Below, piece after piece: positions 1,434 through 46,959 of a stretch of DNA of 64,000 nucleotides (positions are counted from its first letter, which is position 1; each line of letters starts with the position of its first letter). Made by a program: the position numbers and the translations under genes. The notes under the pieces were generated by a model. The model did not search any database. It saw only the letters and a list, made by a program, of their open reading frames with translations, and was not told the DNA's origin. This DNA comes from an uncultured Chlamydiae bacterium (GTDB lineage: Bacteria > Chlamydiota > Chlamydiia > Chlamydiales > JAJFMA01): positions 2,560,001-2,624,000 of the forward strand of contig CAVQMM010000001.1 in NCBI GenBank assembly GCA_963713615.1, read 5' to 3'.

Positions 1434-1763
1434 TTATTCTTGTTCGTCAGCATCATCCCATTGATAATAAGGGTCTGTCTGCGCTGATGGCTCGTATTGA
1501 TTATTCGGTGCATTATAAGGGTCATATTGGAATGTTTGGGTGGGCCTAGCATAATCTTCGGCTTCATTCTGCATAATCAAACCTGGATCGTTGTAAACAC
1601 CCTCTCCATTGCGCCAGTTGTTGTCGTAGTAGCCTCGGCCTCGATCGTAGCCCCCTTCTCTCTCAAAGCCTCCATCTCGGTAAGCCAACAGAGAAGAGTC
1701 GGCATAGGACAGGAATGAGAGCAGGCCCACTAGCACTAGGGATTTTTTTAAATTTATTTTCAT
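1434..1763 (-). CDS. Small secreted low-complexity Y/D/N-rich protein
   Basis: Signal peptide (MKINLKKSLVLVGLL...) followed by SLLAYRDGGFEREGGYDR; RBS GGGAG before ATG at 1763. Confidence 0.7.
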   Translation of the reverse strand: MKINLKKSLVLVGLLSFLSYADSSLLAYRDGGFEREGGYDRGRGYYDNNWRNGEGVYNDPGLIMQNEAEDYARPTQTFQYDPYNAPNNQYEPSAQTDPYYQWDDADEQE

Positions 1764-1848
1764 GACAACTCCCATCATTTAATTGCTCATTGGTCCTTAT
1801 CTTTCTGATAGACCATCGGATGATTTCCATAAATGTTTTGTTCTACAA

Positions 1849-12408: not shown

Positions 12409-13884
12409 TTACAGTAGGTAGGTGCGCCGTTGCTGGGCATTGCCGTAGCCCAGCTCCCCACGGTATTTTGCGATGGTACGCCGCGCGCACTTGATGCCAT
12501 GTTTGGTCATGAGATGGGAGATTGTCTCATCCGAAAGAGGCTTGCGTTTGTCTTCTTGTTCTACAATCCTACGCAATAGATCACGCGCTGTAGTGGATGA
12601 GACGTCATCTCCCTTCTCTGTTTCCAAAGCGCTCGTAAAAAACGAGCGCAATGGCAGCAAGCCTCGCGGGCTATTGAGATATTTGTTCGAAACGGCTCGT
12701 GCAATTGTACTCTCATGTAGCTCAAGTTCATCGGCTATGGTCCTCATCGTCAGAGGCACCAAATTGCCTTCGGCATGTAAAAAGAAGTCGGCTTGTCGAC
12801 GTGCGAGGCTTTGAGCTATCCGTAAAACCGTGTCGTTACGTTGACCGATCGTACGCATCAGCCATCTGGCTGAAGTAATTTTCTGCTTGATAAAGTCGGC
12901 TGTCTCGGAAGGTAATGTGGGATCCTCCAACATACGCATGTAGCGTCTATTCAGCCTAAATTGTGGGATCGGCTCATCATTGGTTTCAACGACTAACAAA
13001 TCTCCCTCTTTCTTGATAGTGACGTCCGGAACGATGTGTTGCACAGGGACTTGAGAATAGTATGCGCCAGGATGCAGGTCTAGCTTAACAACGTCCTGCT
13101 GAATCGTGCGAGAGACCTCATCCGAAGAATACCCTAGGTTTTTGGCAATGCTCGGAATGCGATTGTGCAGAAGATCATCGTAACACCGATTCACAATAGC
13201 GTAAGCTAACCCTCCTTGCTTTCCTTTTGTTGCTAGCTGGATTAGCAGCGATTCCTGTAGATTTACTGCAGCAACTCCCGGAGGATCAAATGTCTGAATC
13301 ACTTTGAGGATGCCAGTTAACGCCTCCTCATCATAACTGTAGAGAACCGCTAATTCCGAGAGATCTGAGCCCAAATAGCCATTTTCATCTAGCGAGCCTA
13401 TCAACGTTTCAGCCATCTGCAGGTCTGTAGGTTTCGCAAGACTTTCTCGTGCCTGACTCATAAGATGATCGAACAGAGTCTCCTGTTCACAGATAATGGT
13501 TTCCAAAAAGGTCTGACGCTTTTCATCTTCTGCTGTACGCCGCATGCCATAGTTCTCTGTTTCGGCAAAGTGATCGCGAAAGTCGTCATCTAGTTGCTTG
13601 AGAACTTCAAAATTTTGCTGTTCAAAGTCCATCTCTTTGTCTTCATTAGCTCCCCGGTCGTCATCGATCTCGCGGTTAAATGGAGAGTCTTCTTCATGAT
13701 CCTCGGAGTACTCGAGGACAGGATTTTGCTCCATTTCAAGCGCTACGAGGGTAGCCAGTTCCATGATGGGAACCTGCAGAAGCTGAATAGCTTGCTGCAT
13801 CTGAGGTAACATGATAAGACGCTGCGTCTGCTTCTGACTTTGGAGGGTTCTAGGATCCATTTTCATTGCCACTTGGTCAGCCAT
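12409..13884 (-). CDS. rpoN: RNA polymerase sigma-54 factor
   Basis: Gln/Leu-rich region I, HESTIARAV, RpoN box ARRTIAKYR. Confidence 0.97.
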   Translation of the reverse strand: MADQVAMKMDPRTLQSQKQTQRLIMLPQMQQAIQLLQVPIMELATLVALEMEQNPVLEYSEDHEEDSPFNREIDDDRGANEDKEMDFEQQNFEVLKQLDDDFRDHFAETENYGMRRTAEDEKRQTFLETIICEQETLFDHLMSQARESLAKPTDLQMAETLIGSLDENGYLGSDLSELAVLYSYDEEALTGILKVIQTFDPPGVAAVNLQESLLIQLATKGKQGGLAYAIVNRCYDDLLHNRIPSIAKNLGYSSDEVSRTIQQDVVKLDLHPGAYYSQVPVQHIVPDVTIKKEGDLLVVETNDEPIPQFRLNRRYMRMLEDPTLPSETADFIKQKITSARWLMRTIGQRNDTVLRIAQSLARRQADFFLHAEGNLVPLTMRTIADELELHESTIARAVSNKYLNSPRGLLPLRSFFTSALETEKGDDVSSTTARDLLRRIVEQEDKRKPLSDETISHLMTKHGIKCARRTIAKYRGELGYGNAQQRRTYLL

Positions 13885-14043: not shown

Positions 14044-16122
14044 ATGTCTACCATCACAGCAATTACAGATTCCCAAGCTCTAGCGGGGATAAAGTCCGGC
14101 CAGGCAAAACCAGCGGTTCTGCTCGTCGATGACGAACCATTGGTTTTAAAAGCACTGGAGAAGACGTTATTGGATCCACGCTTTGACCTCGTTATGGCTG
14201 AAGATGGTGCAGAGGCCTTAAAACTCATGCGCCAGAGGATGTTTGCGGTCATTATCTGTGATCAGCGCATGCCCGGGATAACCGGTGCCGAAGTTTTGCG
14301 TGAAGCCGTTAACATTCAAAGCCATGCCATCCGAATCCTGCTGACTGGCAGTGGAGACCTCAACACTGTCGTCCAAGCCATCAACGTGGGTCAGGCATCA
14401 CAGTTCGTCCTAAAACCCTGGGATGAAGCCTCATTGCGACAAACAGTAACGGGATGCGTCGAAAAGCACCTATTGCTGAAAGAAAACGACCGACTCCAGC
14501 AGCTGACCACGGCACAGCATGAGCAACTAGCCAAGGCCCACGATACCCTAAAACGTGAGCTAAAGCTGGGTGGGCGCATTCATGAGGTGATGCTGCTTGG
14601 ACGCGTTCCTGACAACATTCCCGGCCTTTCCATAGCAGCAGCGACGGTACCATCGCGAGATATCGATGGAGATTTCTTCGACTTCTTCCGGCCACTCCCT
14701 CAAATCTTTGATGTTGTCATCGGGGATGTGATGGGTAAGGGGATTCCTGCCGCGCTAGTAGGTACCGCTGTAAAAACCCAGCTAACCCGATTTGCCGTGC
14801 CGTTTAATCGTCTCCAAGTTTTCGATAAACACGGTATTTGGCGGGATGACGTCTTCAGTCCCCAAGAGATTTTGACGCGTGTTCAGAAGGAAGTGTCGCC
14901 TGCATTGATTGATTTAGAGTACTTTGCAAGCTTGTTTTATGGCCGCTTTGACTTGAAGCAAACGACCTTTACCTATGTAGACTGCGGCTCATCAAAACCC
15001 CTACATTACCGAGCAGCCCTCAAGCAAGCTACAGAGCTGCGAGGCGATAACTTCCCGGTCGGCGTATTGCCCTCGGAAACATTGACGTCGATCACAACGC
15101 GCTTTGACAGAGGAGACCTCTTCGTCTTTTACTCTGATGGAGTAACGGAAGCGCGTACCCCTACTGGTGAGCTCTTTGGCAGTGCTCGCCTCAAGGCTTT
15201 GGTGGAGCAAAATCATGACCTGACCGCTAATGAGCTCCTAGCTACCATTAAACGCACTGTCGTCACCTTCGCTGGTAAAGCGCAGTTTGACGACGATGTG
15301 ACCATCATCGTCGTACGGGTCGATAATACGTTGGTGCCTGAGTTCGCTAAACAAGCAACGGCCAAATTCAGTAGCGATCTTTCCCAAGCTAAGGCTGTGC
15401 GCGAATTTGTTCGAAGACTCTGTCTGCAAGCACCTGGAGATCGTGAACGTCTCGACCAAGAGCTCCAACTTGCAATCAACGAAGCCTTTTGTAATATTGT
15501 GATTCATGGCTACAAGCGAACAAAAGGCGAAATCATCCTCCGTGGCGAGCTTGGGGAAGAAGGGATTGTTTTGGAGCTTAGTGATCAAGGACCCGTATTC
15601 GACCCTTCCGCAGTGGCTGACCCCAGCTTCACGGGTGACCGAGATGATGGCTTTGGTTGGTATATAGTCAAAGAGATCGCCGACCGGGTTATCTACGCGC
15701 GCAAAGAGTCGGAGAAAGGGTGGAACCATCTAAAAATCTTTAAGAAATATCATTTAGAAGAGGGTAAGATGGAGATTTCGCATGATACCAAAGAAGGCAT
15801 CCTAATAGTGACACTAGAAGGCGAACACTTAGATGCCCGCGAGACGCCCTTCTTCAAACAGAAGGTCAACGACCTGTTGGAAGGCGAAAGCTGTAGCAGA
15901 GCGGTCTTTGATTTGCATAGACTTCAGTTCATAGACAGTTCGGGCTTAGGAGCCTTCCTGTCTATCCTCAAGACATTGCACAGCAAAGGTGGTGACCTTA
16001 AGCTATCTGGCATGAACAGAACCATCCGCACAATGTTTGAACTGGTATGCATGCATAAGATTTTCGAAATCTTTAATTCCCCAGAGGAAGCGTTACGTTC
16101 CTTCGAAATCTCCAGGCAGTAG
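14044..16122 (+). CDS. Fused REC - SpoIIE/PP2C phosphatase - anti-sigma kinase (HATPase) - STAS protein
   Basis: LLVDDEP, CDQRMP; GDFFDF, GDVMGKG, YSDGVTEA, DDVT; AINEAFCNIVIHG, GFGW; FIDSSGLG. Confidence 0.9.
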   Translation: MSTITAITDSQALAGIKSGQAKPAVLLVDDEPLVLKALEKTLLDPRFDLVMAEDGAEALKLMRQRMFAVIICDQRMPGITGAEVLREAVNIQSHAIRILLTGSGDLNTVVQAINVGQASQFVLKPWDEASLRQTVTGCVEKHLLLKENDRLQQLTTAQHEQLAKAHDTLKRELKLGGRIHEVMLLGRVPDNIPGLSIAAATVPSRDIDGDFFDFFRPLPQIFDVVIGDVMGKGIPAALVGTAVKTQLTRFAVPFNRLQVFDKHGIWRDDVFSPQEILTRVQKEVSPALIDLEYFASLFYGRFDLKQTTFTYVDCGSSKPLHYRAALKQATELRGDNFPVGVLPSETLTSITTRFDRGDLFVFYSDGVTEARTPTGELFGSARLKALVEQNHDLTANELLATIKRTVVTFAGKAQFDDDVTIIVVRVDNTLVPEFAKQATAKFSSDLSQAKAVREFVRRLCLQAPGDRERLDQELQLAINEAFCNIVIHGYKRTKGEIILRGELGEEGIVLELSDQGPVFDPSAVADPSFTGDRDDGFGWYIVKEIADRVIYARKESEKGWNHLKIFKKYHLEEGKMEISHDTKEGILIVTLEGEHLDARETPFFKQKVNDLLEGESCSRAVFDLHRLQFIDSSGLGAFLSILKTLHSKGGDLKLSGMNRTIRTMFELVCMHKIFEIFNSPEEALRSFEISRQ

Positions 16123-16179
16123 CCGCAGCTTATAGACTGGTTTGTATCTTTGCTCGCGCAGTGACGGGAGAATAATGGG

Positions 16180-16923
16180 ATGACGACGCGCACACCATTA
16201 ACGGGAGCAGCCCGGCAGCGACTCATCGCCGCACTTCATCGCCAGTATGTCGAAGGTCCCACAAAGCGGCACCGCTGGAAATACCTTGCGAAGGTATATG
16301 GGTGGGTGTTTGTCGTCACGGGCGCCAAAGCTATCAAGAGATGCAGCGATGTGATCGTATCAGTCATCCTATTAGTCATTCTTAGCCCCGCATTTCTGCT
16401 GATTGCTGGACTCATCAAAGCCACTGACAATGGACCGATCCTATACGTTTCACGCCGTATCGGCCGATGGGGCAAAGAGTTTCTATGTCCCAAATTCCGA
16501 TCCATGCATGTCGATGCCGAGAAGCGTAAAGCGGCCCTAGAAAGTAGTGAAGCATTTAAGGGTTCTGTCAGGTTCAAAATGAAGAGCGATCCCAGAATCA
16601 CGTGGATAGGAAATATCTTACGTAAAACGAGTATGGATGAACTCCCGCAGCTATGGTGCGTACTAAAAGGAGAGATGTCTTTGGTAGGACCGCGCCCCCC
16701 GCTACCTGAAGAAGTTGCCAAGTACACATTAGAAGAGCGTCGACGCCTCGATATCATCCCCGGACTCACTTGCTTCTGGCAAGTCAGTGGTCGATCGGAT
16801 ATCCCCTTTGACGAACAAGTGAAACTCGATTTACAGTACATTCAAAGTCAGAGCATCTGGGTGGACCTCAAAATCCTACTTAAAACCATTCCAGCAGTGA
16901 TTTTTGGGCGAGGAGCATACTAA
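16180..16923 (+). CDS. Initiating polyprenyl-phosphate sugar phosphotransferase (Bac_transf)
   Basis: KFRSM, DPRIT.IG..LRKTSMDELPQL, GEMSLVGPRP, PGLTCFWQVSGRS. Confidence 0.93.
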   Translation: MTTRTPLTGAARQRLIAALHRQYVEGPTKRHRWKYLAKVYGWVFVVTGAKAIKRCSDVIVSVILLVILSPAFLLIAGLIKATDNGPILYVSRRIGRWGKEFLCPKFRSMHVDAEKRKAALESSEAFKGSVRFKMKSDPRITWIGNILRKTSMDELPQLWCVLKGEMSLVGPRPPLPEEVAKYTLEERRRLDIIPGLTCFWQVSGRSDIPFDEQVKLDLQYIQSQSIWVDLKILLKTIPAVIFGRGAY

Positions 16924-16940
16924 CATTAGGGGAAAATGAC

Positions 16941-18398
16941 GTGAAAGCTGTACTTAATGCCACAGGCTACTGCTCCTCACTCACGCCACTCGTTCTGCGG
17001 CGTCCTACGCCTCTATTTCGCGTCGTCGATAAACCCATCATCGTGCATGTCATTGAATTTCTCGTTAGCAATGGGTTTTCTAAAATTGAACTCGTGCTAA
17101 GCCACTTGCCAGAAATGATCGAAGATGTCCTAGAGGAAGGCTCGCGTTGGGGTGTCAAAATCACCTATCACCTCACTAGAGACCCTAATAAACCTTTCGC
17201 TGTCCTCAGCCCCGTCTCCAGGGGTTGGAAGGATCATATCCTCCTCCTAGGACGCGCCGATGTGTTGCCCAACTTTGATCTACAAAAGCTCAAGAGTCCC
17301 AGCCACTTAAAGGCTACGCTATTGTATACAGCCAACGGCTGCTGGACCGGTTGGGGCCTACTTCCCGCCAGTGCATTGGGCAATATGCATATCGACGCCC
17401 CCTTCGATGCCTTGCCAGAGTCTATTGGAGAGCATAATCGGTTGACCACGAAGAGTTCTGAAATGGAAGCTCTTTCTTTTGCCGGATGGCAGCAGTCGAA
17501 CAATGAGCTGATTCAACGACGTACCTCCACAGCAGCCTTTCCCTCCACATCGCGGATGGTAGAACCGGGCATCTGGCTGTCGAGAGCGACGACCATTCAT
17601 CCCACCGCCATTATTACCCCTCCAGTCTTTATTGGGGATAACTGTCAGATCTTGGAAGGGGCAAGCATTGGCCCTAATACCGTTGTAGAGAATCACTGCA
17701 TCATCGACCGACAAAGTTTGGTTGAAAACTCCATCGTATGCCAAGAAAGCTACGTGGGACGTTCTTTAGAAATTCGCGACAGTGTGGTAGATCGCAATAC
17801 ACTGGTAAATCTGTCCCTGCAGACCTCGGTGATCATCCGAGATGATTTCATCTTGGCCCACCTGGCTCCACCGCCTCTAAGTCAGCAGATTTTTAATGGC
17901 GTGGAGCGCGTGACCGCCTTGCTGATTGTATTGGTACTAGCACCATTTTTACTGTTCTTCACGCTATTGTGGGGCTTAAAGTTCTCAAAAATGTTGCAGC
18001 TGCCCATCGAGCGAGAAAATGACCCATGGCCAACATTTCATTTTTATACCTTTGAAAGACCTGAAGGCAGAATCTCATCACGTATATGGAGACTGTTCCA
18101 ACACCTTCCGTCCCTCATCAATATTGTTCGTGGGGAGTTACATTTTGTAGGAGTCCACCCTATGACAGCCCTACAGCTAGAACGCATGCTCCCGGATTGG
18201 CAAAAGCTCTATCGCAAAACCAAAGTAGGCCTCATCACCCTCGCCGATGTGGACTATATGGGCTACCCATCGGACTCTGAACGCTTTGCATCCGAAACCT
18301 ATTATGCCGCCCACCAAAAAGTACGCTTTGATATTCATGTGCTCACTCGTTGGTTTGGACGCAAACTCTTCGGCGTCTTCAAAGCAGACTCAGAGTAG
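16941..18398 (+). CDS. Degenerate NTP-transferase + left-handed beta-helix + TM + sugar-transferase-like fusion
   Basis: P.PLFRVVDKPII, hexapeptide repeats (PPVFIGDNCQILEGASIGP), LPSLINIVRGELHFVGV; GTG start. Confidence 0.75.
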   Translation: MKAVLNATGYCSSLTPLVLRRPTPLFRVVDKPIIVHVIEFLVSNGFSKIELVLSHLPEMIEDVLEEGSRWGVKITYHLTRDPNKPFAVLSPVSRGWKDHILLLGRADVLPNFDLQKLKSPSHLKATLLYTANGCWTGWGLLPASALGNMHIDAPFDALPESIGEHNRLTTKSSEMEALSFAGWQQSNNELIQRRTSTAAFPSTSRMVEPGIWLSRATTIHPTAIITPPVFIGDNCQILEGASIGPNTVVENHCIIDRQSLVENSIVCQESYVGRSLEIRDSVVDRNTLVNLSLQTSVIIRDDFILAHLAPPPLSQQIFNGVERVTALLIVLVLAPFLLFFTLLWGLKFSKMLQLPIERENDPWPTFHFYTFERPEGRISSRIWRLFQHLPSLINIVRGELHFVGVHPMTALQLERMLPDWQKLYRKTKVGLITLADVDYMGYPSDSERFASETYYAAHQKVRFDIHVLTRWFGRKLFGVFKADSE

Positions 18399-18535: not shown

Positions 18536-20527
18536 ATGCACAAACTCATTCTGATCACTGCTTGGCTCACAGTTATCTGTGCGGCCATTGGCGGCACAGT
18601 CTGTTATCTGGCATATGAGGCCCAGAACAGACAGGAAAATGTCGATTATCGCGAGGTTGTAGCCCTACTCTCCGCGAAAAAGACCGATGAAGCACTGGAC
18701 ATCCTAAAACCTTACTCCAAAGACCTCTCAGTAACTCCTCCACAGGGTTTGGATTGGTTGCCGTTATTTATCGAAGCCTATCAACAAGCTGACAATGCTA
18801 CTGAGCTCGTAGCCCTCTATCTATCCTATCCGCGCGGCTTCGATAGCAATGAAGAAGCTACTCTCAAAGTAGCTGCAGCACTGCTGTCACAAAAAAAAGT
18901 TGACGACTTCTACCGTCTCGCCAGCAGCTGGCAGAACCGGCTGACAAAAGAGGCTGACTGGTTTGTCCTAGATGCCGATGCTCTATTGGTGGAAGGAAGA
19001 ATTAATGAAGCCCTGAAACTCTTGCAGTCCCGGGTGTTTGACGGCACTGAGGACAGTGGAAGGCTGATCCGTCTAGCCCTCATTCATGCTAAAGACAATC
19101 TTGCTGAATCCTGGAATATCCTCGGCGAAGCCTTGGAAAAAGATCCCACCAATGCCGATGTAACCACTTACCGCGCCCAAATCCTCGAAGCCATCCAAAA
19201 ACCTACTCTCGCACGTATCGAATATCTTAGCGCTATCCAGAAGGATCCTAGAAATCCTAGTCTCATCTACCAGCTCGGCGAGTTTTATCGTCGCAATGGC
19301 CACTATGAATTAGCATTAAACGCCTGGAGTCAGGGTCTCGATCTCCCTCACAGTGAGGAACTATGGCTAGCGACTCTCTTCTGGTCGAAGATGACATCGC
19401 CAATGAAATCTCAGCCTGCCGCAACACCACCCAAAAACAGTGCATTGTCACCACTCATTACTTACCTACATCAGTTGCCAGCAGATCATTTTTGGAATGA
19501 TGTCGCGTTTGATGCTCTTCCTGAAGCCGCTACGTACCTCAAGACGCGTCAAGAAACTTTCTGGCTACGGCTCGCTAACGCACTGGCCCAGAGCGATGAA
19601 GCACACGCTGCTGAGTTGCTGGATTTCAATACATTCCATAACACCAGCTGGTCTCCACAGCTACAGCTAGCATTACAACAAATTTTGGCATACCGCCGCT
19701 ATGGGATCCTACACATTGATGAGGTCAGTCCACCTAATCAAGATAATTCCTTAGCCGAGGAAGACTCTGCAACTCGCTCCTGGCCTCCGCATCAGCTATT
19801 CAGAACATTACAGACTTTGGCACAGAAAACGCCCGCTGGCCTGCCCGCCCAAGATGTCCCCTTGGATATCCAAGCGCTCCTTAATAGCAGACTAGCTTTT
19901 CCAGCCGCCTTCCTCGCCAGCGGCTGGTTAGAGGCGGCTCTGACCTTTCCCGTTCCGCGCGTAGTCCCCGAAGACTTTCCAGGATGGGTCTCGTTTGCCT
20001 ATACACAGGCCATCCGCTACGGCCGTAGCCCTCTAGAAGCGCTTAATTTCGCTACTCGGCAAACACCTAATCAACCCCTGACGTTATTGACCGGCGAACT
20101 CATGATCAGCACAGGTAGCCCAGATGCTGGCATCGAACAACTGAAACCCCTCACAGGCAACTATAATGAGATCGGCGTCCGTGCCGCTTGGCTCATCAGC
20201 CAGGTCAATTTAGATCGTAAGGACTTCCAAGCTGCCCAAGACACCGTAATGCAACATCCTATGCTATCTCGACATGTCGTAGGCAAGGAGACCCTAGCGC
20301 GTATCGCCCTTCAGCAAGGAGATATCGCCCAGGCTGATACCCTCTACGGTAAGATCGAAAAAGAGTCTTTAGAAGCGAGATTCTATCTGGCCCGCCGAGC
20401 CCTATCAGAGAAAAAATGGGACTTGGCTAGAAGACTCACTGAACAACTCGTGATTGAATACCCCGATAACCAACAACTACATAGAGACCTACAACGTCTG
20501 CGGGTCTTAACTGAAGAAGGATCATAA
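18536..20527 (+). CDS. N-terminally anchored TPR protein (paralog 1)
   Basis: N-terminal TM and TPR-like helices; shares WFVLDAD, QLxEFYRRxG, FWLRL and GELxISxGSPDAG with 22478-24658. Confidence 0.8.
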   Translation: MHKLILITAWLTVICAAIGGTVCYLAYEAQNRQENVDYREVVALLSAKKTDEALDILKPYSKDLSVTPPQGLDWLPLFIEAYQQADNATELVALYLSYPRGFDSNEEATLKVAAALLSQKKVDDFYRLASSWQNRLTKEADWFVLDADALLVEGRINEALKLLQSRVFDGTEDSGRLIRLALIHAKDNLAESWNILGEALEKDPTNADVTTYRAQILEAIQKPTLARIEYLSAIQKDPRNPSLIYQLGEFYRRNGHYELALNAWSQGLDLPHSEELWLATLFWSKMTSPMKSQPAATPPKNSALSPLITYLHQLPADHFWNDVAFDALPEAATYLKTRQETFWLRLANALAQSDEAHAAELLDFNTFHNTSWSPQLQLALQQILAYRRYGILHIDEVSPPNQDNSLAEEDSATRSWPPHQLFRTLQTLAQKTPAGLPAQDVPLDIQALLNSRLAFPAAFLASGWLEAALTFPVPRVVPEDFPGWVSFAYTQAIRYGRSPLEALNFATRQTPNQPLTLLTGELMISTGSPDAGIEQLKPLTGNYNEIGVRAAWLISQVNLDRKDFQAAQDTVMQHPMLSRHVVGKETLARIALQQGDIAQADTLYGKIEKESLEARFYLARRALSEKKWDLARRLTEQLVIEYPDNQQLHRDLQRLRVLTEEGS

Positions 20528-20533
20528 ACATTC

Positions 20534-20863
20534 ATGAAGCTCAAGACTCTATTGATCAGCCCATTATTCCTATCACTCGCTACCTGTCTGAACGCGACAG
20601 AACTCGCTTCGGATACCCCAAGTCCAGGTCATCATGGACAGCTCCTGCTGGCTCGCCGCGAAGCGATTGCTAATAACCTAAACCTACTCTATGACCGTAA
20701 TACTCGCGCAGATAGACAACGACAAGACCGTCGAGAGTACTACCGCTCCCGTCTGCAGACACGAAACTCTTGTTCCAAATGTCAACCTACTGAGGACCAA
20801 GCAATTGACGATACCGTAAGCGAACAACCCCCTACCCAAAGCGATACCACGCACGTGGTATAG
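20534..20863 (+). CDS. Small secreted hypothetical protein
   Basis: Signal peptide; LLLARRE...LLYDRN; a CxxC motif. Confidence 0.65.
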   Translation: MKLKTLLISPLFLSLATCLNATELASDTPSPGHHGQLLLARREAIANNLNLLYDRNTRADRQRQDRREYYRSRLQTRNSCSKCQPTEDQAIDDTVSEQPPTQSDTTHVV

Positions 20864-20959
20864 AGGGTCCGATCATTTAAATGTAAGAAAGCAGGAGACT
20901 AAAAAAAGGCAAAAAGATCTATAAGGGGGATAAGGAAGACATCAACCCGAGGAGCGACT

Positions 20960-21574
20960 ATGTCTATGAATTATTTGGCTTCCCTAGTCCTTCGGCTACC
21001 CTTTGCCACCGCGGTGGCTGCAGGATGCCTCCTCGCCACCTCAGGTATCGCTGATGACGATGCGATACAAAATCCCCTGATGGATGATGCCCAATCGTAC
21101 GATTTTTCGCTCAAAGATTATGACCTAACAACACCCGGGGAAAGTCTTGGTCTGAATCCAGGAGAAACTCTGGCGGATAGGGGTCAAAGTTTCTATGACC
21201 GCAATCAACACCAGAGATCTTCAAATAACCCCAGTAGCAGCAACTGGCAAAGAAGCCAGAATAGTCAAAGTTCGGATTCCCGCGACCGAAGAAGTTCATA
21301 CGACAGCTATTACCAAAGAAACGGCAATAGTACCTACCGAGACAACGATTACCGCAACAGGAACAACAACACCAACCAGAACAACAGCGACAGCGGTGGT
21401 GGATACAACCAGTACCAGTACTATCCATATGAATATGAGCGCGGAATATCACGTCAATACCAGGACGGACGCATACCCTACTACCGATCCCGCGAGTACC
21501 CGAGTACTTATGGGTCCAGGAGTGTGGAACAAGCCACGTCTCCGAATGCTAAATACTACTGGGGAGGACGATAA
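20960..21574 (+). CDS. Secreted N/Y/S/R-rich low-complexity protein
   Basis: RBS GAGGAG; hydrophobic N-terminus; TLADRGQSFYDRNQ followed by N/Q/Y/S/R tracts. Confidence 0.7.
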   Translation: MSMNYLASLVLRLPFATAVAAGCLLATSGIADDDAIQNPLMDDAQSYDFSLKDYDLTTPGESLGLNPGETLADRGQSFYDRNQHQRSSNNPSSSNWQRSQNSQSSDSRDRRSSYDSYYQRNGNSTYRDNDYRNRNNNTNQNNSDSGGGYNQYQYYPYEYERGISRQYQDGRIPYYRSREYPSTYGSRSVEQATSPNAKYYWGGR

Positions 21575-21613
21575 ACCTCTCTTTCTAAAGTAATTGCAAA
21601 ATAGGGAATTCTT

Positions 21614-21880
21614 ATGAAAAAGCATATAGCAAGCTTTCTTTGTGTCCTTTTTTGTGCTCCGGCCATCTATCTCCTGGCCCACGATGACGATTTTCATAAC
21701 CAGGATCTGCTGTATGACCGCCAACAGCGGGAATGGCAACAGAACGAGTATGAATCGGGACGGAATCAACCCCAATTTGATGCCTATTACCACCACAATG
21801 ACTACCCCGGTTCGCGCGGAAGTAACTACTACAACGACTCCAATTACAACTACGACGGGGACCCATATAACGGGTACTAA
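21614..21880 (+). CDS. Small secreted Y/N/D-rich protein
   Basis: Signal peptide ending LLA, then HDDDFHNQDLLYDRQQ and a Tyr/Asn-rich tail. Confidence 0.7.
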   Translation: MKKHIASFLCVLFCAPAIYLLAHDDDFHNQDLLYDRQQREWQQNEYESGRNQPQFDAYYHHNDYPGSRGSNYYNDSNYNYDGDPYNGY

Positions 21881-21925: not shown

Positions 21926-22162
21926 TCACAAATCGTCACTCGGCGCGAAGCGCTTTGGAGTGCGGTCGCTAGCGATCGCTTTTCGTTCCTTACGATGGTC
22001 ATGTGAAACGGCATCACTATCATTCGATGCAGAATAGGGAGGATTACATCGGACAGGGGCAAGGGCACGCACACGGGCACGAAGAAGCCTCTTTAGCGTT
22101 ACTTTTGGATATTGGCGACGCAGTCGGTTGGGGCTCCAAAGCGCGCCGAGATACGATTGTGA
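21926..22162. repeat. Degenerate/chimeric family B element
   Basis: Left part is the reverse complement of 12240-12332. The interior contains GGGCACGCACACGGG as in the 62341 element. Ends CGCGCCGAG.TACGATTGTGA. Confidence 0.7.
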
Positions 22163-24662: not shown

Positions 24663-25472
24663 ATGAAGGTTAAAGATTACGCCTTCCTAGGCGCTTTAGG
24701 CCTATTGGCTATCTTTGTCTGGCTGCGAGACCGACTATGGATGTCCTCAGCAGAGGACACCCTGCCTATATTGGTAGCATTGCCGGTTTTCTTTTGGTTA
24801 GGAAGACCTTGGCATATTCTAGAAGCGCCTTTTCATTTATCCACTAAGGCAGTGGCTGCTAGCGTTATTTTGTTTCTTTTCGGCATCGTCGCTGAAAGCA
24901 CCCTTCTAATGGCTATAGGGTGGACCTTGCTTCTGTGGTCGTGGCTTAAGGTGCGTACACCTCCTGCAGACCAGAGTGACCTTAAAAAGTTATTGATACT
25001 TCCGTTGATGTCCTTCCCTTGGATTACGCTGGATATGCAAACCGTGGGATGGTACTTCAGACTTTCAGGAGCTTGGGTAACAGCACATTTTTTCTCTCTC
25101 TTAGGCTTCCCAGTCAAGTGGGAAGGTACCACTATCCTGATTGATAAGATGCCCATCTCCGTAGAAGCCGCCTGTGCAGGGCTCAATACTCTCCAGAGTA
25201 TGCTAATAGCAGGAACCGTGGTGGCCTTTGTGATCCTAGGACGCACAAATCGCTACTGGCCCAACCTATTAGTTCTAATTTTGATGGCATGGCTTGCCAA
25301 TACCTTCCGCATTGTGGTCATTAGCGCTGTTGCGTTGACATTTGGTCGAGATTTCGCTCTTGGAGCCTTCCACCAATGGGGCGGCTGGTTCATCTTGGTA
25401 TTAATGTTTGTAATGTGTTGGCTATTGTTTGAACTACAGGCTCCTAAAGTAGCACCTAAGCCGAAAACATGA
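24663..25472 (+). CDS. Exosortase/archaeosortase family protein
   Basis: About 8 TM segments; catalytic-triad motifs VEAACAGL (Cys), LANTFRI (Arg), FHQWGGW (His). Confidence 0.85.
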   Translation: MKVKDYAFLGALGLLAIFVWLRDRLWMSSAEDTLPILVALPVFFWLGRPWHILEAPFHLSTKAVAASVILFLFGIVAESTLLMAIGWTLLLWSWLKVRTPPADQSDLKKLLILPLMSFPWITLDMQTVGWYFRLSGAWVTAHFFSLLGFPVKWEGTTILIDKMPISVEAACAGLNTLQSMLIAGTVVAFVILGRTNRYWPNLLVLILMAWLANTFRIVVISAVALTFGRDFALGAFHQWGGWFILVLMFVMCWLLFELQAPKVAPKPKT

Positions 25473-25939
25473 TCAAAAAAGCAAGTTTACCAAAACCTAT
25501 TGAAATTGCGGTCCTAGGCTACTGCCTTTGGCAAGCTACCGATCTGGTACGCTCTTGGCTTACAGCTCCAGCGGAAAGATGGGCTTGGATCGCTTTTTTT
25601 ATCTGGTGCATTCCTGTCATTTGGTACCTAGCTATCACCATCCAAGAGCAGCAAATCAAACAATCAACGCCTATTCTTCTTGGTGCAGCGATTGTCGTTG
25701 CCCTCGTCGGTGGCTTAGGGTCTCTGAATATCTTGGGACACATCGGATTAGCTCTGGCGTTGGCGGGCATGCTTCCATTTCGCTGGGAAATCCTTGTCTG
25801 GTTAGCCACGGCGCTGTCTTGGTTGCCCAGTTTTGGGTGGATGATTAAAAGTCTTCCCTTTGCAATTATTCCCATCATCCAAATAGGGTTAGCCTTATTC
25901 GGAAGCGCCTTTTTGTTGTACTGTTGGCGGAGGTCCTAA
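25469..25939 (+). CDS. Small multi-TM protein (exosortase-associated)
   Basis: ATGA overlap with the exosortase; Trp-rich, about 5 hydrophobic segments. Confidence 0.7.
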   Translation: MIKKASLPKPIEIAVLGYCLWQATDLVRSWLTAPAERWAWIAFFIWCIPVIWYLAITIQEQQIKQSTPILLGAAIVVALVGGLGSLNILGHIGLALALAGMLPFRWEILVWLATALSWLPSFGWMIKSLPFAIIPIIQIGLALFGSAFLLYCWRRS

Positions 25940-26622
25940 TATGCAACAGACCGGTCGTACAATAGCACTATGGATAGGGCTAGCTGTGGCGGTAGTCCTG
26001 GGGCTTCTATGGCAATTCGCACCTTTAACAGACGCCAAGAGCAGGCTGCAGGCCCTTCCCTTGAATGGCCCTAGTTTTATTGGTCAAGATATCGCTCTTT
26101 CCGATTGGGAAAAAGGCTATTTTAAAAATGTCAATGTTCTCAAACGCGTCTACACCATCGGTAAGAAGACGTTGTTTGTCACAGCGTTAGATGGAACGCT
26201 AAATCGCCACGTGGTTCACGATCCCCTATATTGCTTCCGAGGCAGTGGCTATGAGGTCGCTAGCGAAAAAACTATCGATCTGCCAGATGGTGGCTCCGTC
26301 GCTTTCTTAAAGTTGATTAAGAACAATTCAGAACAAGATGCCATGTATTGGTTCACAAATGGCCAGACAACGTACGATAGCCCCTTACGCTATTGGTGGC
26401 AGGCAACTCTGCGACGCCTCACGCTAGGCATGTCTGGGAAAGAGCCCATTTTGATCGTCGTTCAGCCCATTGACGACCACCCTCTCGACTGGAAAGAGGT
26501 CGTGCACTACTTCCCTCAGCTTCTCACGCTATAAAAAGCTTCACAAACGCTCTAGGCTTATCTTTCAATGCTTTAAGATCTCACAATCGTGTTGAATCGT
26601 TTTCTTCGTTTTGTAAATGTCC
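25534..26622 (+). repeat. Left copy of ~1.09-kb direct repeat (partner 39724-40812)
   Basis: Base-by-base match at offset 14190; only four differences seen in the core (25849, 25876, 26099, 26439), more at the edges. Confidence 0.95.
25941..26534 (+). CDS. Exosortase-associated EpsI-like protein
   Basis: N-terminal TM, HDPLYCFRGSGY (H.P..C..G.G motif), YWF; downstream of the exosortase. Confidence 0.75.
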   Translation: MQQTGRTIALWIGLAVAVVLGLLWQFAPLTDAKSRLQALPLNGPSFIGQDIALSDWEKGYFKNVNVLKRVYTIGKKTLFVTALDGTLNRHVVHDPLYCFRGSGYEVASEKTIDLPDGGSVAFLKLIKNNSEQDAMYWFTNGQTTYDSPLRYWWQATLRRLTLGMSGKEPILIVVQPIDDHPLDWKEVVHYFPQLLTL

Positions 26623-26678
26623 ATAATTTCCATAAAGTCCATTTATACTGTGGCGAGAATGCACAACATGGACACTAT

Positions 26679-27004
26679 GAGGTAATTGCAAAATTATTTG
26701 AGCCCTTAAGGATCGATTCTTAGGAAAAAAGGTTACCCTCTTTTGCGAGAAGGCGACGCTATAAAGCTCAGATGGCATGCCACCATCTAGTCTGGAAAGA
26801 CAGGCTTTTCTCCCCTCCCAGGCCCGAAGGGTCGATATTGCAACAGGCCATGGCATCGCCATGGTATATGCCAAAACTGTTTTAGCAGCCTGTAGGGCTG
26901 CCATAAAGCGCATGCATAAATGGTGTGTGTAAGCCGACGCCTTATGGCATCCCTACGAGGCTGCTAAATCCATTTCTGACATATACCGTGGCGATGCATG
27001 GCCA
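26679..27004. mobile_element. Truncated family A MITE-like copy abutting the CRISPR array
   Basis: Starts GAGGTAATTGCAAAATT after ...ACAACATGGACACTAT; the second arm is degenerate and ends at the first CRISPR repeat. Confidence 0.8.
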
Positions 27005-27007
27005 AAT

Positions 27008-29085
27008 GTTTCAATCCACGCCCCTGCGTGAGGGGCGACGCCTTAAAGGCGAGCAAAAGGCGAACGCTATCATGTTTCAATCCACGCCCCTGCGTGAGGG
27101 GCGACGGCATGGTCAACTTGCGAGAAGACCAATCGTTAGTTTCAATCCACGCCCCTGCGTGAGGGGCGACCATGACTCCAGAGCAAATTATTAGTGAAGT
27201 GGCTGTTTCAATCCACGCCCCTGCGTGAGGGGCGACATAGCAGCCGAACAACTAGGTCGCAAATGCACCGGTTTCAATCCACGCCCCTGCGTGAGGGGCG
27301 ACGGTAGCACCTTGGACCTGTGCGTTTCTAAAGGCTGTTTCAATCCACGCCCCTGCGTGAGGGGCGACCAGCTAGTAACTGGCTCTGGACAGGGACAAAC
27401 ACGTTTCAATCCACGCCCCTGCGTGAGGGGCGACCTTGTGTGCTAAGAATCCCGAAGTTGGGTTGGGGGTTTCAATCCACGCCCCTGCGTGAGGGGCGAC
27501 TTTGTGTTAACCTACCGGCTTTGCGAATCCATAGTTTCAATCCACGCCCCTGCGTGAGGGGCGACTTTGAGCCGTTGGTAAATGCGTATACCTATCGTGG
27601 TTTCAATCCACGCCCCTGCGTGAGGGGCGACGTAACTAAGTAACAAGCAAGCAAGGAATAAGTAGTTTCAATCCACGCCCCTGCGTGAGGGGCGACAAAC
27701 GAGCACGGTGAAGCGTGCAATATTGGTCAACGTTTCAATCCACGCCCCTGCGTGAGGGGCGACCCAGCGTTTCGCGCAATTCATCGTCCATGTAATGTTT
27801 CAATCCACGCCCCTGCGTGAGGGGCGACGTGTGAAGCGAATTTGTTGCGCAAAGTGTCCACTTGTTTCAATCCACGCCCCTGCGTGAGGGGCGACGTAAA
27901 TACTGGTTGACCACATTACCCTTCCTATGTTTCAATCCACGCCCCTGCGTGAGGGGCGACGTGACGGCTTCTGGGGACCTGTCCACAGCAGCGAGTTTCA
28001 ATCCACGCCCCTGCGTGAGGGGCGACAACGATGTTAGCCTATACATCAGTGCAATAACAGGGCGAGTTTCAATCCACGCCCCTGCGTGAGGGGCGACGCG
28101 GCGTGCTTTGCCGCTTGCCTGGATATCGTGGTTTCAATCCACGCCCCTGCGTGAGGGGCGACGTCCCGATGCTTATTCCCGCTTGGTTGTTACTGGTTTC
28201 AATCCACGCCCCTGCGTGAGGGGCGACACACCGCAGCCACCGCAGCAACTAGCTGCATAGTTTCAATCCACGCCCCTGCGTGAGGGGCGACGCCTTTAGC
28301 CTTGGCCTTTTTGCCAGCGTTTCAAGTGTTTCAATCCACGCCCCTGCGTGAGGGGCGACAAACCAGATAGAGTTTGCCTTTAGCGGGAATGATGTTTCAA
28401 TCCACGCCCCTGCGTGAGGGGCGACCCGCCGCCCCCGCCGCCCCAATTGTGACTGCTTGAGTTTCAATCCACGCCCCTGCGTGAGGGGCGACATGACGGA
28501 AGAGTAGCCGTAAGGCCATTATTGATGTTTCAATCCACGCCCCTGCGTGAGGGGCGACCTACCATTTGTTTTTGCAGGTATGGCCCCATTCCTGTTTCAA
28601 TCCACGCCCCTGCGTGAGGGGCGACGATGTTAGCCTATACATCAGTGCAATAACAGGGTTTCAATCCACGCCCCTGCGTGAGGGGCGACGGAAAAGCCGT
28701 CGGTTCATCTTCGATCCACGAAGTTTCAATCCACGCCCCTGCGTGAGGGGCGACCGTAGCCGCTTGGCCCGCGGGAGCCACTGTCGGGTTTCAATCCACG
28801 CCCCTGCGTGAGGGGCGACTGGGAGCCGATTTTGATCTGTTCCAAACCCTATGGTTTCAATCCACGCCCCTGCGTGAGGGGCGACGCTGCTTTGACGCTC
28901 ACCTTACCAAATGGACCGGTGTTTCAATCCACGCCCCTGCGTGAGGGGCGACCTATGCAGTTGAACTTATGGACGACGACATACGGGTTTCAATCCACGC
29001 CCCTGCGTGAGGGGCGACTCAACATTGAATTCAAAGCGCTCAGTGTCCACGTGGTTTCAATCCACGCCCCTGCGTGAGGGGCGAC
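27008..29085 (-). CRISPR. Type I-C CRISPR array, 32 identical 32-bp repeats (GTCGCCCCTCACGCAGGGGCGTGGATTGAAAC), 31 spacers of 32-39 nt
   Basis: Repeats counted by eye; canonical I-C repeat ending ATTGAAAC on the minus strand; adjacent to cas2. Confidence 0.98.
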
Positions 29086-40130: not shown

Positions 40131-40724
40131 ATGCAACAGACCGGTCGTACAATAGCACTATGGATAGGGCTAGCTGTGGCGGTAGTCCTGGGGCTTCTAT
40201 GGCAATTCGCACCTTTAACAGACGCCAAGAGCAGGCTGCAGGCCCTTCCCTTGAATGGCCCTAGTTTTATTGGTCAAGATATCGCTCTCTCCGATTGGGA
40301 AAAAGGCTATTTTAAAAATGTCAATGTTCTCAAACGCGTCTACACCATCGGTAAGAAGACGTTGTTTGTCACAGCGTTAGATGGAACGCTAAATCGCCAC
40401 GTGGTTCACGATCCCCTATATTGCTTCCGAGGCAGTGGCTATGAGGTCGCTAGCGAAAAAACTATCGATCTGCCAGATGGTGGCTCCGTCGCTTTCTTAA
40501 AGTTGATTAAGAACAATTCAGAACAAGATGCCATGTATTGGTTCACAAATGGCCAGACAACGTACGATAGCCCCTTACGCTATTGGTGGCAGGCAACTCT
40601 GCGACGCCTCACGCTAGGCATGTCTGGGGAAGAGCCCATTTTGATCGTCGTTCAGCCCATTGACGACCACCCTCTCGACTGGAAAGAGGTCGTGCACTAC
40701 TTCCCTCAGCTTCTCACGCTATAA
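40131..40724 (+). CDS. Second copy of the EpsI-like protein
   Basis: 197 aa, identical to 25941-26534 except one K->E change (GMSGEEP). Confidence 0.8.
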   Translation: MQQTGRTIALWIGLAVAVVLGLLWQFAPLTDAKSRLQALPLNGPSFIGQDIALSDWEKGYFKNVNVLKRVYTIGKKTLFVTALDGTLNRHVVHDPLYCFRGSGYEVASEKTIDLPDGGSVAFLKLIKNNSEQDAMYWFTNGQTTYDSPLRYWWQATLRRLTLGMSGEEPILIVVQPIDDHPLDWKEVVHYFPQLLTL

Positions 40725-40816
40725 AAAGCTTCACAAACGCTCTAGGCCTATTTTTCAATGCTTAAGGACCTCACAATCGTGTTGAATCGTTTTCTTTGTT
40801 TTGTAAATGTCCCTAG

Positions 40817-43362
40817 GAGGTAATTGCAAAATTATTTGAGCCTTTAAGGATAGATTCTTAGGAAAAAAGGTTACCTTTTTTTGTGAGAAGGCGATTCTGG
40901 AAAGCTCAAATGGCATGGCACTATCTAGTCTGGAAAGACAGGCTTTTCTCCCCTCCCAGGCCCGAAGGGTCGATATTGCAACAGGCCATGGCATCGCCAT
41001 GGTATATGCCAAAACGGTTTTAGCAGCCTGTAGGGCTGCCATAAAACGTCAGTATTCACACGCTATTTATACAAGCGCCTTATGGCAGCCCTACAGGCTG
41101 CGAAATCCCTTCCTGGCATATACCATGGCGATGCCATGGCCTGTTGCAATATCGACCCTTCGGGCCTGCGAAGGGAATGGCTCTCTCTTCACCGGCATCC
41201 GATTTTCAGGAAATTGACTTCGGAAAATCGGACTTCTGCAATTACCTCCTATGGACAACATGAACACTATGAGGTAATTGCAAAATTATTTGAGCCCTTA
41301 AGGATCGATTCTTAGGAAAAAAAGGTTACCTTTTTTTTGCGAGAAGGCGGTTCTGGAGAGCTCAGATGGCATGCCACTATCTCGTCTGGAAAGACAGGCT
41401 TTTCTCCCCTCCCAGGCCCGAAGGGTCGATATTGCAACAGGCCATGGCATCGCCATGGTATATGCCAAAACGGTTTTAGCAGCCTGTAGGGCTGCCATAA
41501 AACGTCAGTATTCACACGCTATTTATACAAGCGCCTTATGGCAGCCCTACAGGCTGCGAAATCCCTTCCTGGCATATACCATGGCGATGCCATGGCCTGT
41601 TGCAATATCGACCCTTCGGGCCTGGGAAGGGAATGGCTCTCTCTTCACCGGCATCCGATTTTCAGGAAATTGACTTCGGAAAATCGGACTTCTGCAATTA
41701 CCTCCTATGGACAACATCAACACTATGAGGTAATTGCAAAATTATTTGAGCCCTTAAGGATCGATTCTTAGGAAAAAAAGGTTACCTTTTTTTGTGAGAA
41801 GGCGACGCTATAAAGCTCAGATGGCATGCCACCATCTAGTCTGGAAAGACAGGCTTTTCTCCCCTCCCAGGCCCGAAGGGTCGATATTGCAACAGGCCAT
41901 GGCATCGCCATGGTATATGCCAAAACGGTTTTAGCAGCCTGTAGGGCTGCCATAAAACGTCAGTATTCACACGCTATTTATACAAGCGCCTTATGGCAGC
42001 CCTACAGGCTGCGAAATCCCTTCCTGGCATATACCATGGCGATGCCATGGCCTGTTGCAATATCGACCCTTCGGGCCTGGGAAGGGAATGGCTCTCTCTT
42101 CACCGGCATCCGATTTTCAGGAAATTGACTTCGGAAAATCGGACTTCTGCAATTACCTCCTATGGACAACATGGACACTATGAGGTAATTGCAAAATTAT
42201 TTGAGCCCTTAAGGATCGATTCTTAGGAAAAAAAGGTTACCTTTTTTTGTGAGAAGGCGACGCTATAAAGCTCAGATGGCATGCCACCATCTAGTCTGGA
42301 AAGACAGGCTTTTCTCCCCTCCCAGGCCCGAAGGGTCGATATTGCAACAGGCCATGGCATCGCCATGGTATATGCCAAAACGGTTTTAGCAGCCTGTAGG
42401 GCTGCCATAAAACGTCAGTATTCACACGCTATTTATACAAGCGCCTTATGGCAGCCCTACAGGCTGCGAAATCCCTTCCGGCCTGGGAAGGGAATGGCTC
42501 TCTCTTCACCGGCATCCGATTTTCAGGAAATTGACTTCGGAAAATCGGACTTCTGCAATTACCTCCTATGGACAACATGGACACTATGAGGTAATTGCAA
42601 AATTATTTGAGCCCTTAAGGATCGATTCTTAGGAAAAAAAGGTTACCCTCTTTTGTGAGAAGGCGACGCTATAAAGCTCAGATGGCATGCCACCATCTAG
42701 TCTGGAAAGACAGGCTTTTCTCCCCTCCCAGGCCCGAAGGGTCGATATTGCAACAGGCCATGGCATCGCCATGGTATATGCCAAAACGGTTTTAGCAGCC
42801 TGTAGGGCTGCCATAAAACGTCAGTATTCACACGCTATTTATACAAGCGCCTTATGGCAGCCCTACAGGCTGCGAAATCCCTTCCTGGCATATACCATGG
42901 CGATGCCATGGCCTGTTGCAATATCGACCCTTCGGGCCTGGGAAGGGAATGGCTCTCTCTTCACCGGCATCCGATTTTCAGGAAATTGACTTCGGAAAAT
43001 CGGACTTCTGCAATTACCTCCTATGGACAACATGGACACTATGAGGTAATTGCAAAATTATTTGAGCCCTTAAGGATCGATTCTTAGGAAAAAAGGTTAC
43101 CCTCTTTTGCGAGAAGGCGACGCTATAAAGCTCAGATGGCATGCCACCATCTAGTCTGGAAAGACAGGCTTTTCTCCCCTCCCAGGCCCGAAGGGTCGAT
43201 ATTGCAACAAGCCATGGCATCGCCATGGTATATGCCAAGACGGTTTTAGCAGCCTGTAGGGCTGCCATAAAACGTCAGTATTCACACGCTATTTATACAA
43301 GCGCCTTATGGCAGCCCTACAGGCTGCGAAACCCCTTCCTGGCATATACCATGGCGATGCCA
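40817..43362. mobile_element. Head-to-tail tandem array of six family A MITE-like units
   Basis: Units start at 40817, 41271, 41727, 42182 (internal ~49-bp deletion), 42588 and 43043 (truncated); joined by 22-bp linkers CTATGGACAACAT(GG/GA/CA)ACACTAT. Confidence 0.9.
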
Positions 43363-43454
43363 CATAGGCCTCAACCTAACAAGCCCTTTGGGCTTATGTT
43401 TCAATGCTTTAAGGCTTTCTAGGCAACTCAAAAGGTTGGCTGGCGCAATTTCCT

Positions 43455-43546: not shown

Positions 43547-44500
43547 TTATTCTCTTACCTTGCGCTCAAAGAAGGCCACTGTGGTGTAATCAGAGATATG
43601 CTGAACCGCCAGGGTCCATGAACCTTCTACAGGGATTTGTTCCCAGTTCCTACTTCGCTCCTCAAAGAAGGAACTCTCTGCCATAACATATAAATCTGCA
43701 CCCTCAGAAGTCTCCACTCCAGCATAAATTAAATAGTTACCCGCAAAACACTGGAGGGCTATGGTCGCTACAGGACCACATGCATGAGTTGGCTTTGGTG
43801 GCCAAGCGAGAAGCAAAACGTCTTTCGAATCAGCTCTTTGCAAATGCTCGACAAAGTCGTCTTCTGTAGTATGATCAAAAAAGCTCTCTTCTTTGCTATA
43901 TGCCCCTGCCTTCTCATAGCCCTGCACGTTAATTCCATTTTGCTCAAGAAAACAAGCCACATATCCACGTCCACAACCAACATCATGAACAACATTAGCG
44001 GAATCTTTGCTAACCTGAGGAAAAGTACTCAAAATTGCAACAGGAAGTCCTCTGCCAGGCTTAAACCAGGAATTTCCACCATAGCTACCAACCAACCTAG
44101 GAAGCTGCCCGCGTTGCTCTGCAGTAGGCTCGACTTCCGGATTTTTATTGATGTTTGGAAATAATAATCCTGCCATCAAGTCTTTATAATATGCAACCCG
44201 TTCGGTTTCTGGATTGGGCTTCATCCCTGGATGTTCTATGTTATATGGATAGATAGCATCCTTAAAAACCATATTGAGAACTTCATAGTTTAACGAATTC
44301 AATTTTCCATAAGTGTATAGTTCAAAAACCTGCTTTATTGCATTATTATAACAAATTTTTTCGCTGTCATTTAAAACGGTTTCGAGAATTTTTGCATAAA
44401 AAACCATTGCGTTCATAACGGATTTACGATTATGTTGTAAATCTCCAGTTCTTACATTTCCCGGAACAATTTCTATGTTATTAAAACCAAGTTCCATCAC
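43547..44500 (-). CDS. Class I SAM-dependent methyltransferase-like protein
   Basis: HDVGCGRGY motif I, LLLAWPP; AT-rich. Confidence 0.65.
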   Translation of the reverse strand: MMELGFNNIEIVPGNVRTGDLQHNRKSVMNAMVFYAKILETVLNDSEKICYNNAIKQVFELYTYGKLNSLNYEVLNMVFKDAIYPYNIEHPGMKPNPETERVAYYKDLMAGLLFPNINKNPEVEPTAEQRGQLPRLVGSYGGNSWFKPGRGLPVAILSTFPQVSKDSANVVHDVGCGRGYVACFLEQNGINVQGYEKAGAYSKEESFFDHTTEDDFVEHLQRADSKDVLLLAWPPKPTHACGPVATIALQCFAGNYLIYAGVETSEGADLYVMAESSFFEERSRNWEQIPVEGSWTLAVQHISDYTTVAFFERKVRE

Positions 44501-44642
44501 AATCCCTTTTTAAACAGATTTATTGTTGTTTTTTGATGTTTATCATTATATAAAGTAGTAAATATGCATCAATTTAATTATAAAAGCAATAGAAACATGC
44601 CAACAAAAGAAGGTTACCTTCTGCGTAAATCAAGTGGCGCAA

Positions 44643-46957: not shown

Positions 46958-46959
46958 CT

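Follow-up and report, generated by a model that had tools for sequence, protein, structure and literature searches.

Three small ORFs, S1, S2 and S3, lie between two TPR genes of an operon that also encodes an exosortase, within a 64,000-nucleotide stretch of DNA from an uncultured Chlamydiae bacterium (the window). This arrangement raises the question of whether their products are cargo of the exosortase, as a sequence-only reading of the window had proposed, or serve a different pathway. All three ORFs were found where that reading had placed them, on the + strand and with the peptides that it quoted (Table 1), and each encodes a protein that is, by a crude hydropathy rule, hydrophobic at its N-terminus and hydrophilic thereafter, in keeping with the signal peptides that it had described. 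The operon order is receiver-PP2C-kinase-STAS fusion, sugar transferase, nucleotidyl-transferase-like protein, TPR1, S1-S3, TPR2, exosortase, membrane protein and EpsI-like protein. S1 starts 7 nt past the stop of TPR1, and the divergent gene at 12409-13884 is one that we take to be rpoN from features of its sequence.

Table 1. Features of the locus (window positions) and related genes elsewhere in the source genome. Sampled genomes are labeled with G-numbers; G000 is the source genome and C1 its contig.
Feature	Position	Strand	Remark
Upstream operon: receiver-PP2C-kinase-STAS fusion, polyprenyl-phosphate sugar transferase, nucleotidyl-transferase-like protein	14044..18398	+	
TPR1, N-terminally anchored TPR protein	18536..20527	+	40-44% identical to TPR2
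S1, small predicted-secreted protein, 109 aa	20534..20863	+	no Pfam/NCBIfam match
S1 internal hydrophobic-Ala pairs: LA residues 39-40, IA 45-46	20648..20671	+	candidate second processing site
LYDRN core of S1	20687..20701	+	
S2, predicted-secreted, 204 aa, Ser/Tyr/Asn/Arg-rich	20960..21574	+	
Internal LA (residues 71-72) and FYDRN (residue 78) of S2	21170..21205	+	FYDRN at 21191
S3, predicted-secreted, 88 aa, Tyr/Asn/Asp-rich	21614..21880	+	
LLA at likely signal-peptidase site, acidic spacer and LYDRQ of S3	21674..21724	+	LYDRQ at 21710
Terminator-like hairpin 3' of S3	21962..21979	+	consensus match only
TPR2, all-helical TPR solenoid with one N-terminal anchor helix	22478..24658	+	pLDDT 87.5
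Exosortase	24663..25472	+	PF09721 90.5 bits vs cut-off 25.7
Small membrane protein and EpsI-like (DUF3485) gene, completing the exosortase module	25469..26534	+	
Rhs arrays, source genome	G000:C1 2368899-2433823 and 3071523-3085610		
PEP-CTERM genes, source genome	G000:C1 41060-42789, 101351-101992, 655336-655974, 1165504-1166163		
PEP-CTERM genes, source genome (continued)	G000:C1 1343039-1343950, 3270815-3271744, 3328000-3330492, 3796658-3797725		
Motif-less small signal-peptide proteins, source genome	G000:C1 100765, 1672140, 1949910-1950814, 2316328, 3624939-3626031		

Properties of S1, S2 and S3

Searches of Pfam and NCBIfam with S1, S2 and S3 returned no match. Orthologs of S1 lie immediately 3' of TPR1 in G101, G064, G167 and G419, and an ortholog of S2 is present in G101 (E 4e-9), the only one of five genomes in which single-protein searches with S2 and S3 found orthologs. 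The Tyr/Asn/Gln-rich tails ascribed to all three proteins are found in S2 (12% Tyr) and S3 (17% Tyr) but not in S1, which has 3% Tyr and, downstream of the motif described below, an Arg/Gln-rich predicted helix with a CxxC. The mature chains are 25-28% charged and their tails are unconserved.

S3 is covered without differences by RNA-library contigs in four of four peat metatranscriptome studies, although these runs were found by using this stretch as query and DNA carry-over in RNA libraries is possible. A fifth RNA run covered the end of S2 only, three DNA runs gave scattered cover, and RNA cover of S1 and of the sugar-transferase genes was little or none, which carries no weight as evidence. 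Terminator-like sites, scored by consensus match only, number 4 in the region compared to 2.3 in shuffled sequence. No sigma-54-like site (GG-N10-GC) was found to precede S1-S3 or the stand-alone motif genes; such a site occurs upstream of three PEP-CTERM genes of the source genome.

S1-S3 and the exosortase module

The PEP-CTERM/exosortase (EpsH) system, with EpsI, the TPR protein PrsT and the Cys/Arg/His triad motifs of the exosortase, is described in the available part of Haft et al. 2006 (PMC1569441). To the extent of that description, the window module is of the same kind, with a triad-bearing exosortase (Cys171, Arg216 and His237 are invariant in 18 sequences), an EpsI-like protein, TPR proteins, polysaccharide genes and about 11 PEP-CTERM proteins that the genome encodes (11 matches, 6 of them over the cut-off; 11 convincing cases among 12 flagged ORFs). 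The exosortase reaches the NCBIfam cut-off of none of the named subfamilies (XrtA, B, C, D, N, V, W and others) and passes only the TIGR04178 family signature. TPR2, which is the fixed upstream neighbor of this exosortase subfamily, found only generic TPR solenoids in Foldseek; unlike PrsT, the window TPR proteins are membrane-anchored and score 65 and 55 bits against a PrsT cut-off of 312.

Among 400 chlamydial genomes sampled, the TPR family occurs in 56 and this type of exosortase in 20, always directly 3' of the TPR gene. The closest exosortase loci are from Chlamydiales or Chlamydiae, and the TPR-exosortase module is also present in Verrucomicrobia, Desulfobacterota, Chlorobi and others, with a TPR gene in 72 of 78 loci. 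Our literature search, supplements and subscription journals apart, found no relevant paper on exosortase or PEP-CTERM proteins in chlamydiae; the complete system in 20 of the 400 genomes is thus one for which that literature gave no description. Over several phyla (L158-L235), a conserved cassette comprises a DUF4114-like PEP-CTERM gene, an anchored TPR gene, the exosortase, the membrane protein and the EpsI-like gene, and its exosortases pass no named NCBIfam exosortase cut-off.

S1-S3 themselves are not canonical exosortase substrates. All three lack a C-terminal Pro-Glu-Pro motif and a PF07589 match, as well as a C-terminal membrane helix with a basic cluster (the highest 19-residue hydropathy past residue 35 is 0.07, -0.29 and -1.62, respectively); instead of the PEP-CTERM tail of the system described in PMC1569441, they have an N-terminal tag. 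Of 63 exosortase loci that have an upstream ORF, 40 encode a PEP-CTERM protein, often DUF4114-like, immediately before the TPR gene. Since S1-S3 stand where the operon of other bacteria has a PEP-CTERM gene, their position points to co-expression rather than to substrate status. The expected co-occurrence with the exosortase also failed: in 10 of 21 motif-positive genomes, some of them incomplete, no exosortase of this type was found (e.g., G303, G414, G406 and G401), and this occurrence of motif genes where no exosortase was detected is the outcome that the sequence-only reading had itself named as counting against cargo. With G000 as the positive control for PEP-CTERM detection, no exosortase, TPR-family or PEP-CTERM gene was found in G303, G118 and G239 (94%, 99% and 92% complete).

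A conserved LYDRN motif

The proposed family proved real, with a conserved core that extends to [DSTN]-L-Y-D-R-N. In 43 copies, the core frequencies are L 0.91, Y 0.93, D 0.77, R 0.79 and N 0.81, position -1 is D, S, N or T in 82%, and the Tyr is replaced by Phe or Trp in 7%. The probability of an [LF]YDR core in shuffled S1, S2 and S3 is 0.003, 0.014 and 0.008, respectively, and that of the originally proposed full pattern is 0.0005 for each. The full pattern also occurs twice, against 0.03 expected, among 408 signal-peptide-like small ORFs, a post hoc test in that the pattern came from the earlier reading and one in which S2 was missed by the ORF filter. A further small signal-peptide, Tyr-rich protein of the window (1434-1778, - strand) has LLA followed by GYDR; it lacks the core L, is unscored by the profile and is consistent with the looser motif first proposed.

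We assembled the motif family from 40 TPR loci read individually and three rounds of profile search, the last of which covered 44 chosen genomes, 43 of them TPR-positive, so that the distribution is biased toward TPR. Verified motif genes are present in 21 of the 400 genomes (18 with TPR, 11 with exosortase), and the motif is conserved across at least ten chlamydial families. The members are low-complexity signal-peptide proteins, mostly of 56-140 aa and up to 288 aa, for which the motif is the sole shared feature; it is followed in one subtype by an Arg/Gln-rich helix with CxxC or CC and in a second by D-[FW]-N-x-Y-x-Y-P. One protein (288 aa) has three copies, another has two, and in G333 one copy is fused to the C-terminus of a TPR protein. 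G303, a single contig, contains three motif genes. Stand-alone motif genes often adjoin polysaccharide genes (rmlC/rmlD, GT2, WecB), and the copies in family f41 adjoin recA without sugar genes. In the small proteins an Asp-rich flank precedes the motif.

When 1.84 billion representatives were searched with the profile, 23 hits were returned, many of them profile training sequences: 21 small signal-peptide proteins, one TPR fusion and one unrelated repeat sequence (P0127), which was dropped. Weak profile hits without a recognizable signal peptide and motif were likewise dropped, in 14 genomes in one round and, in a later round, in all but G346, G285, G422, G395 and G201. In five genomes, LYDR taken alone as a DNA pattern occurred about as often as in controls, and 20 of its hits read as chance matches or unrelated proteins. 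The motif matches no Pfam or NCBIfam family (14 members gave nothing meaningful in NCBIfam), a PDB sequence search returned one hit (E 0.31) that we treat as chance, and two members searched in the ESM Atlas gave only hits under 0.8. The literature search, within the limits given above, found no relevant paper on LYDRN, and the family is apparently undescribed.

Candidate processing sites upstream of the motif

The suggestion that LLA is a shared processing site held in part. In S3 the LLA (residue 22) is likely the signal-peptidase site, but the LA of S1 (residues 39-40) and of S2 (71-72) is internal, and LLA is thus not one kind of site. Among motif copies at least 26 residues beyond the hydrophobic region, a distant class that includes the internal repeats and the TPR fusion, 16 of 18 have [ILVW]A 2-15 residues upstream, compared to a mean of 4.0 in shuffled sequences (0 of 5000 shuffles reach 16) and to 9% of other sequence windows; the pattern was set after inspection of the sequences and related copies are not independent. 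The LA before the motif therefore looks, from its placement, like a processing site.

Hydrophobic-Ala sites also occur in other small secreted proteins of the source genome that lack the motif, which suggests that hydrophobic-Ala may be a general second trimming site. Further Tyr-, Gly-, His- or Cys-rich small signal-peptide proteins that lack the motif were noted in that genome, some of them encoded in tandem pairs (Table 1).

The motif at the start of Rhs toxin tips

Rhs/YD polymorphic toxins with a PxxxxDPxGL autoprotease are described in the portions of PMC8765631 and PMC3482391 available, the former placing the start of the released tip just past the core end motif. An unexpected link to these toxins emerged when the source genome was searched with a profile made from the small proteins only, in which Rhs proteins ranked next and made up 13 of the 16 hits that scored at least 8 bits. 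LYDR[NSD] lies 2-3 residues past the DxxGL core end in 16 of 24 source-genome Rhs core ends; the released tip would, by that published boundary, begin 2-3 residues before LYDRN. Outside Rhs, no ORF of at least 150 aa in this genome contains exact LYDRN, and the region around the S2 motif is similar to the start of some Rhs tips of the same chlamydial family.

Like polymorphic toxins, the motif-bearing Rhs genes combine a core end motif with a variable tip and a small downstream ORF, and they have RHS_repeat matches. The sequence after the motif is variable and Arg/Ser/Gly-rich, without the acidic flank of the small proteins, and a small ORF (84-174 aa) lies 3' of 12 of 13 motif-bearing tips, as with immunity genes. 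One of seven tips examined with Pfam gave a match (DUF4258) and the rest none. As in toxin translocation boxes, the motif is short and lies within an N-terminal region of the predicted released toxin that is polar and of low complexity. The available parts of PMC8765631 and PMC3482391, in which the pre-toxin elements are named domains, contain no short motif common to released toxin tips and non-toxic secreted peptides.

Motif variants follow the Rhs core in 9 of 27 parsed ends of four kin genomes (G064, G101, G167 and G422; 30 of 63 matches fetched) and in none of 18 from G118, G264, G277, G303 and G333. The strict motif is present in 7 of 176 unique Rhs tip starts, against 0.2 expected, although three are from the source genome and the query favored the motif. 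In a quick tree of 126 cores, which included 70 of 120 database proteins, motif-bearing Rhs fall in two core clades (the starred branches force at least 4 changes), and in both the motif is fixed while the flanking Rhs linker diverges. The 16 source-genome copies represent one paralog expansion. Small motif genes occur in families f36, f41, f6 and f24, where none of the Rhs parsed has the motif; related variants (LYEQN, LYETN) are seen in the small proteins as well as in the Rhs tips of genus g2.

Large arrays in the source genome (Table 1) consist of Rhs genes that encode a signal peptide and of orphan tip cassettes, with small ORFs downstream, and most tips have no Pfam match. In G101 (L031:7053-13981), S1 and S2 are separated by an insertion of four ORFs, one of them an Rhs gene whose tip start lacks the motif. 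No relevant paper connecting Rhs with environmental chlamydiae was found in the literature searched, again apart from supplements and subscription journals.

LYDRN as a putative N-terminal docking tag

The motif lies a few residues past a known or predicted cut, whether by signal peptidase, at an internal hydrophobic-Ala or by the Rhs autoprotease, and we therefore read LYDRN as a helix-capping docking tag at a newly cut N-terminus, recognized by a putative envelope partner. This is the explanation that we favor, at a likelihood we judge to be just short of even. S1-S3 and their kin would be exported by Sec and trimmed at the signal-peptidase site or, when the motif is further in, at the internal hydrophobic-Ala by a periplasmic protease, so that the repeat proteins would each yield several tagged peptides. 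The residue before the L would cap a short helix, and L, Y, R and N would bind an envelope protein common to these chlamydiae, which need not be the TPR protein and would not be the exosortase. The Rhs tips may use the same tag and the same partner once released, whether to be exported or to enter related cells. Several results count against a docking tag. These profiles, with their limited sensitivity for a short motif, found no motif gene in 38 of 56 TPR-positive genomes, and hydrophobic-Ala sites are also present in small secreted proteins that lack the motif. On the Rhs side, the 16 source-genome copies are a single expansion, only 7 of 176 unique tip starts have the strict motif, its DNA pattern gave no Rhs case in 300 other genomes, and four families with small motif genes (f36, f41, f6 and f24) showed no motif in the Rhs parsed. 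In the model of the G333 fusion, the motif residues themselves have pLDDT under 50.

The colicin TonB and TolB boxes and the CsgA N22 export tag are short linear motifs in a disordered N-terminal region that engage an envelope protein, and colicin-type toxins imitate a native ligand. LYDRN would work likewise, a likeness by description that claims no membership, and is unlike them in being predicted helical and in occurring also as internal repeats. A small disordered protein linked to an Rhs-family protein is also seen at the Bdellovibrio hit locus, where, according to the part of the source available, Bd0108 binds the neighboring Bd0109 (PMC4267844). Here the link is instead a shared motif; S1-S3 and the Rhs genes are not neighbors, no Rhs gene having been found next to S1-S3 in the source genome.

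A tag common to small secreted proteins and Rhs tips would provide a handle on its partner and on a second processing step, and bears on how signal-peptide Rhs toxins reach their targets and on the role of the small secreted proteins of amoeba symbionts. A wider proposal, which we regard as speculative and on the whole unlikely, is that environmental chlamydiae have an undescribed peptide-tag pathway in which secreted propeptides and polyproteins are cut at hydrophobic-Ala and the exposed LYDRN is read by an envelope receptor; the Rhs toxins of one family would have taken over the tag as a means of reaching related chlamydiae, with that family's additional small genes acting as native ligands or decoys.

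Alternative explanations

The motif could instead be a ligand of the co-encoded membrane-anchored TPR protein, with peptides that tune or chaperone the TPR/exosortase module and are not cleaved by the exosortase. Gene order favors this: a motif gene directly adjoins the TPR gene in 14 of the 18 TPR-positive genomes that have one, the reading frames are coupled or overlapping, and G333 provides a natural fusion. However, that fusion has a candidate release site of its own, and while 6 of the 12 genomes found by profile rather than by neighborhood have TPR (base rate, 14%), the other six gave no TPR-family gene. Moreover, about 52 non-chlamydial TPR-exosortase loci had no motif gene within the DNA fetched, a count limited by the sensitivity for so short a motif. 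AlphaFold of the G333 fusion placed a helix (688-710) that begins at the motif, in line with the favored docking tag, with motif residues at pLDDT under 50 and no confident docking. When TPR2 (residues 35-702) was modeled in complex with the motif segment of S1, the score was 0.00, which is evidence neither way. We consider a TPR ligand unlikely.

We hold it to be improbable that the motif is a conserved helix cap that serves the self-association or the stability of low-complexity secreted proteins with no other relation, its presence at Rhs tip starts being a coincidence fixed by paralog expansion. Only five residues are shared and the tails are unrelated, the Rhs cases are in one family and largely near-copies, and the strict DNA pattern gave no Rhs case in 300 other genomes. 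Coincidence does not sit well with the fixation of the motif amid a diverging linker in two core clades, with the lack of the exact motif in any other long ORF of the source genome, or with the paired variants of genus g2.

The near-invariant Tyr (93% of copies) with its Asp-rich upstream flank, and the polysaccharide genes beside many stand-alone copies, would also fit a modification site (glycosylation, sulfation or phosphorylation) for neighboring sugar-transfer genes or a host enzyme, a very improbable reading in view of the copies with Phe or Trp, the Rhs copies without an acidic flank and the f41 copies without sugar genes.

Finally, it is remote that S1-S3 are TPR/exosortase cargo that builds an amyloid-like or Tyr-crosslinked matrix, since their operon position, the composition of S2 and S3 and the motif genes in 11 of 20 exosortase-positive genomes are set against the missing PEP-CTERM tail and membrane helix, the existence of canonical substrates, the motif-positive genomes in which no such exosortase was found, the charged, unconserved tails and S1-type members that are not Tyr-rich. 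Functional amyloids of the curli CsgA or Fap type have conserved imperfect beta-arch repeats and low charge; S1-S3 have 25-28% charged residues, unconserved tails and a motif predicted to be helical in the one copy modeled.

Other features of the window

The membrane-protein and EpsI-like genes are duplicated (25534-~26534 and 39724-~40724, 14,190 nt apart and 99% identical over the 300 nt compared), with a second DUF3485 ORF at 40131-40724. The duplicated pair flanks a CRISPR array (32 repeats from 27008) and cas genes, as if insertion of an island had created a long direct repeat. At ~40700-43400 there are six to seven units of about 455 bp in tandem, and part of this unit is also found once at ~26660-27020, beside the CRISPR array. 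A glycosyltransferase cluster (GT4, GT2, unknown, phosphodiesterase) follows at 43547-48983 on the - strand; in G101 and G064 it lies directly 3' of the EpsI-like gene.
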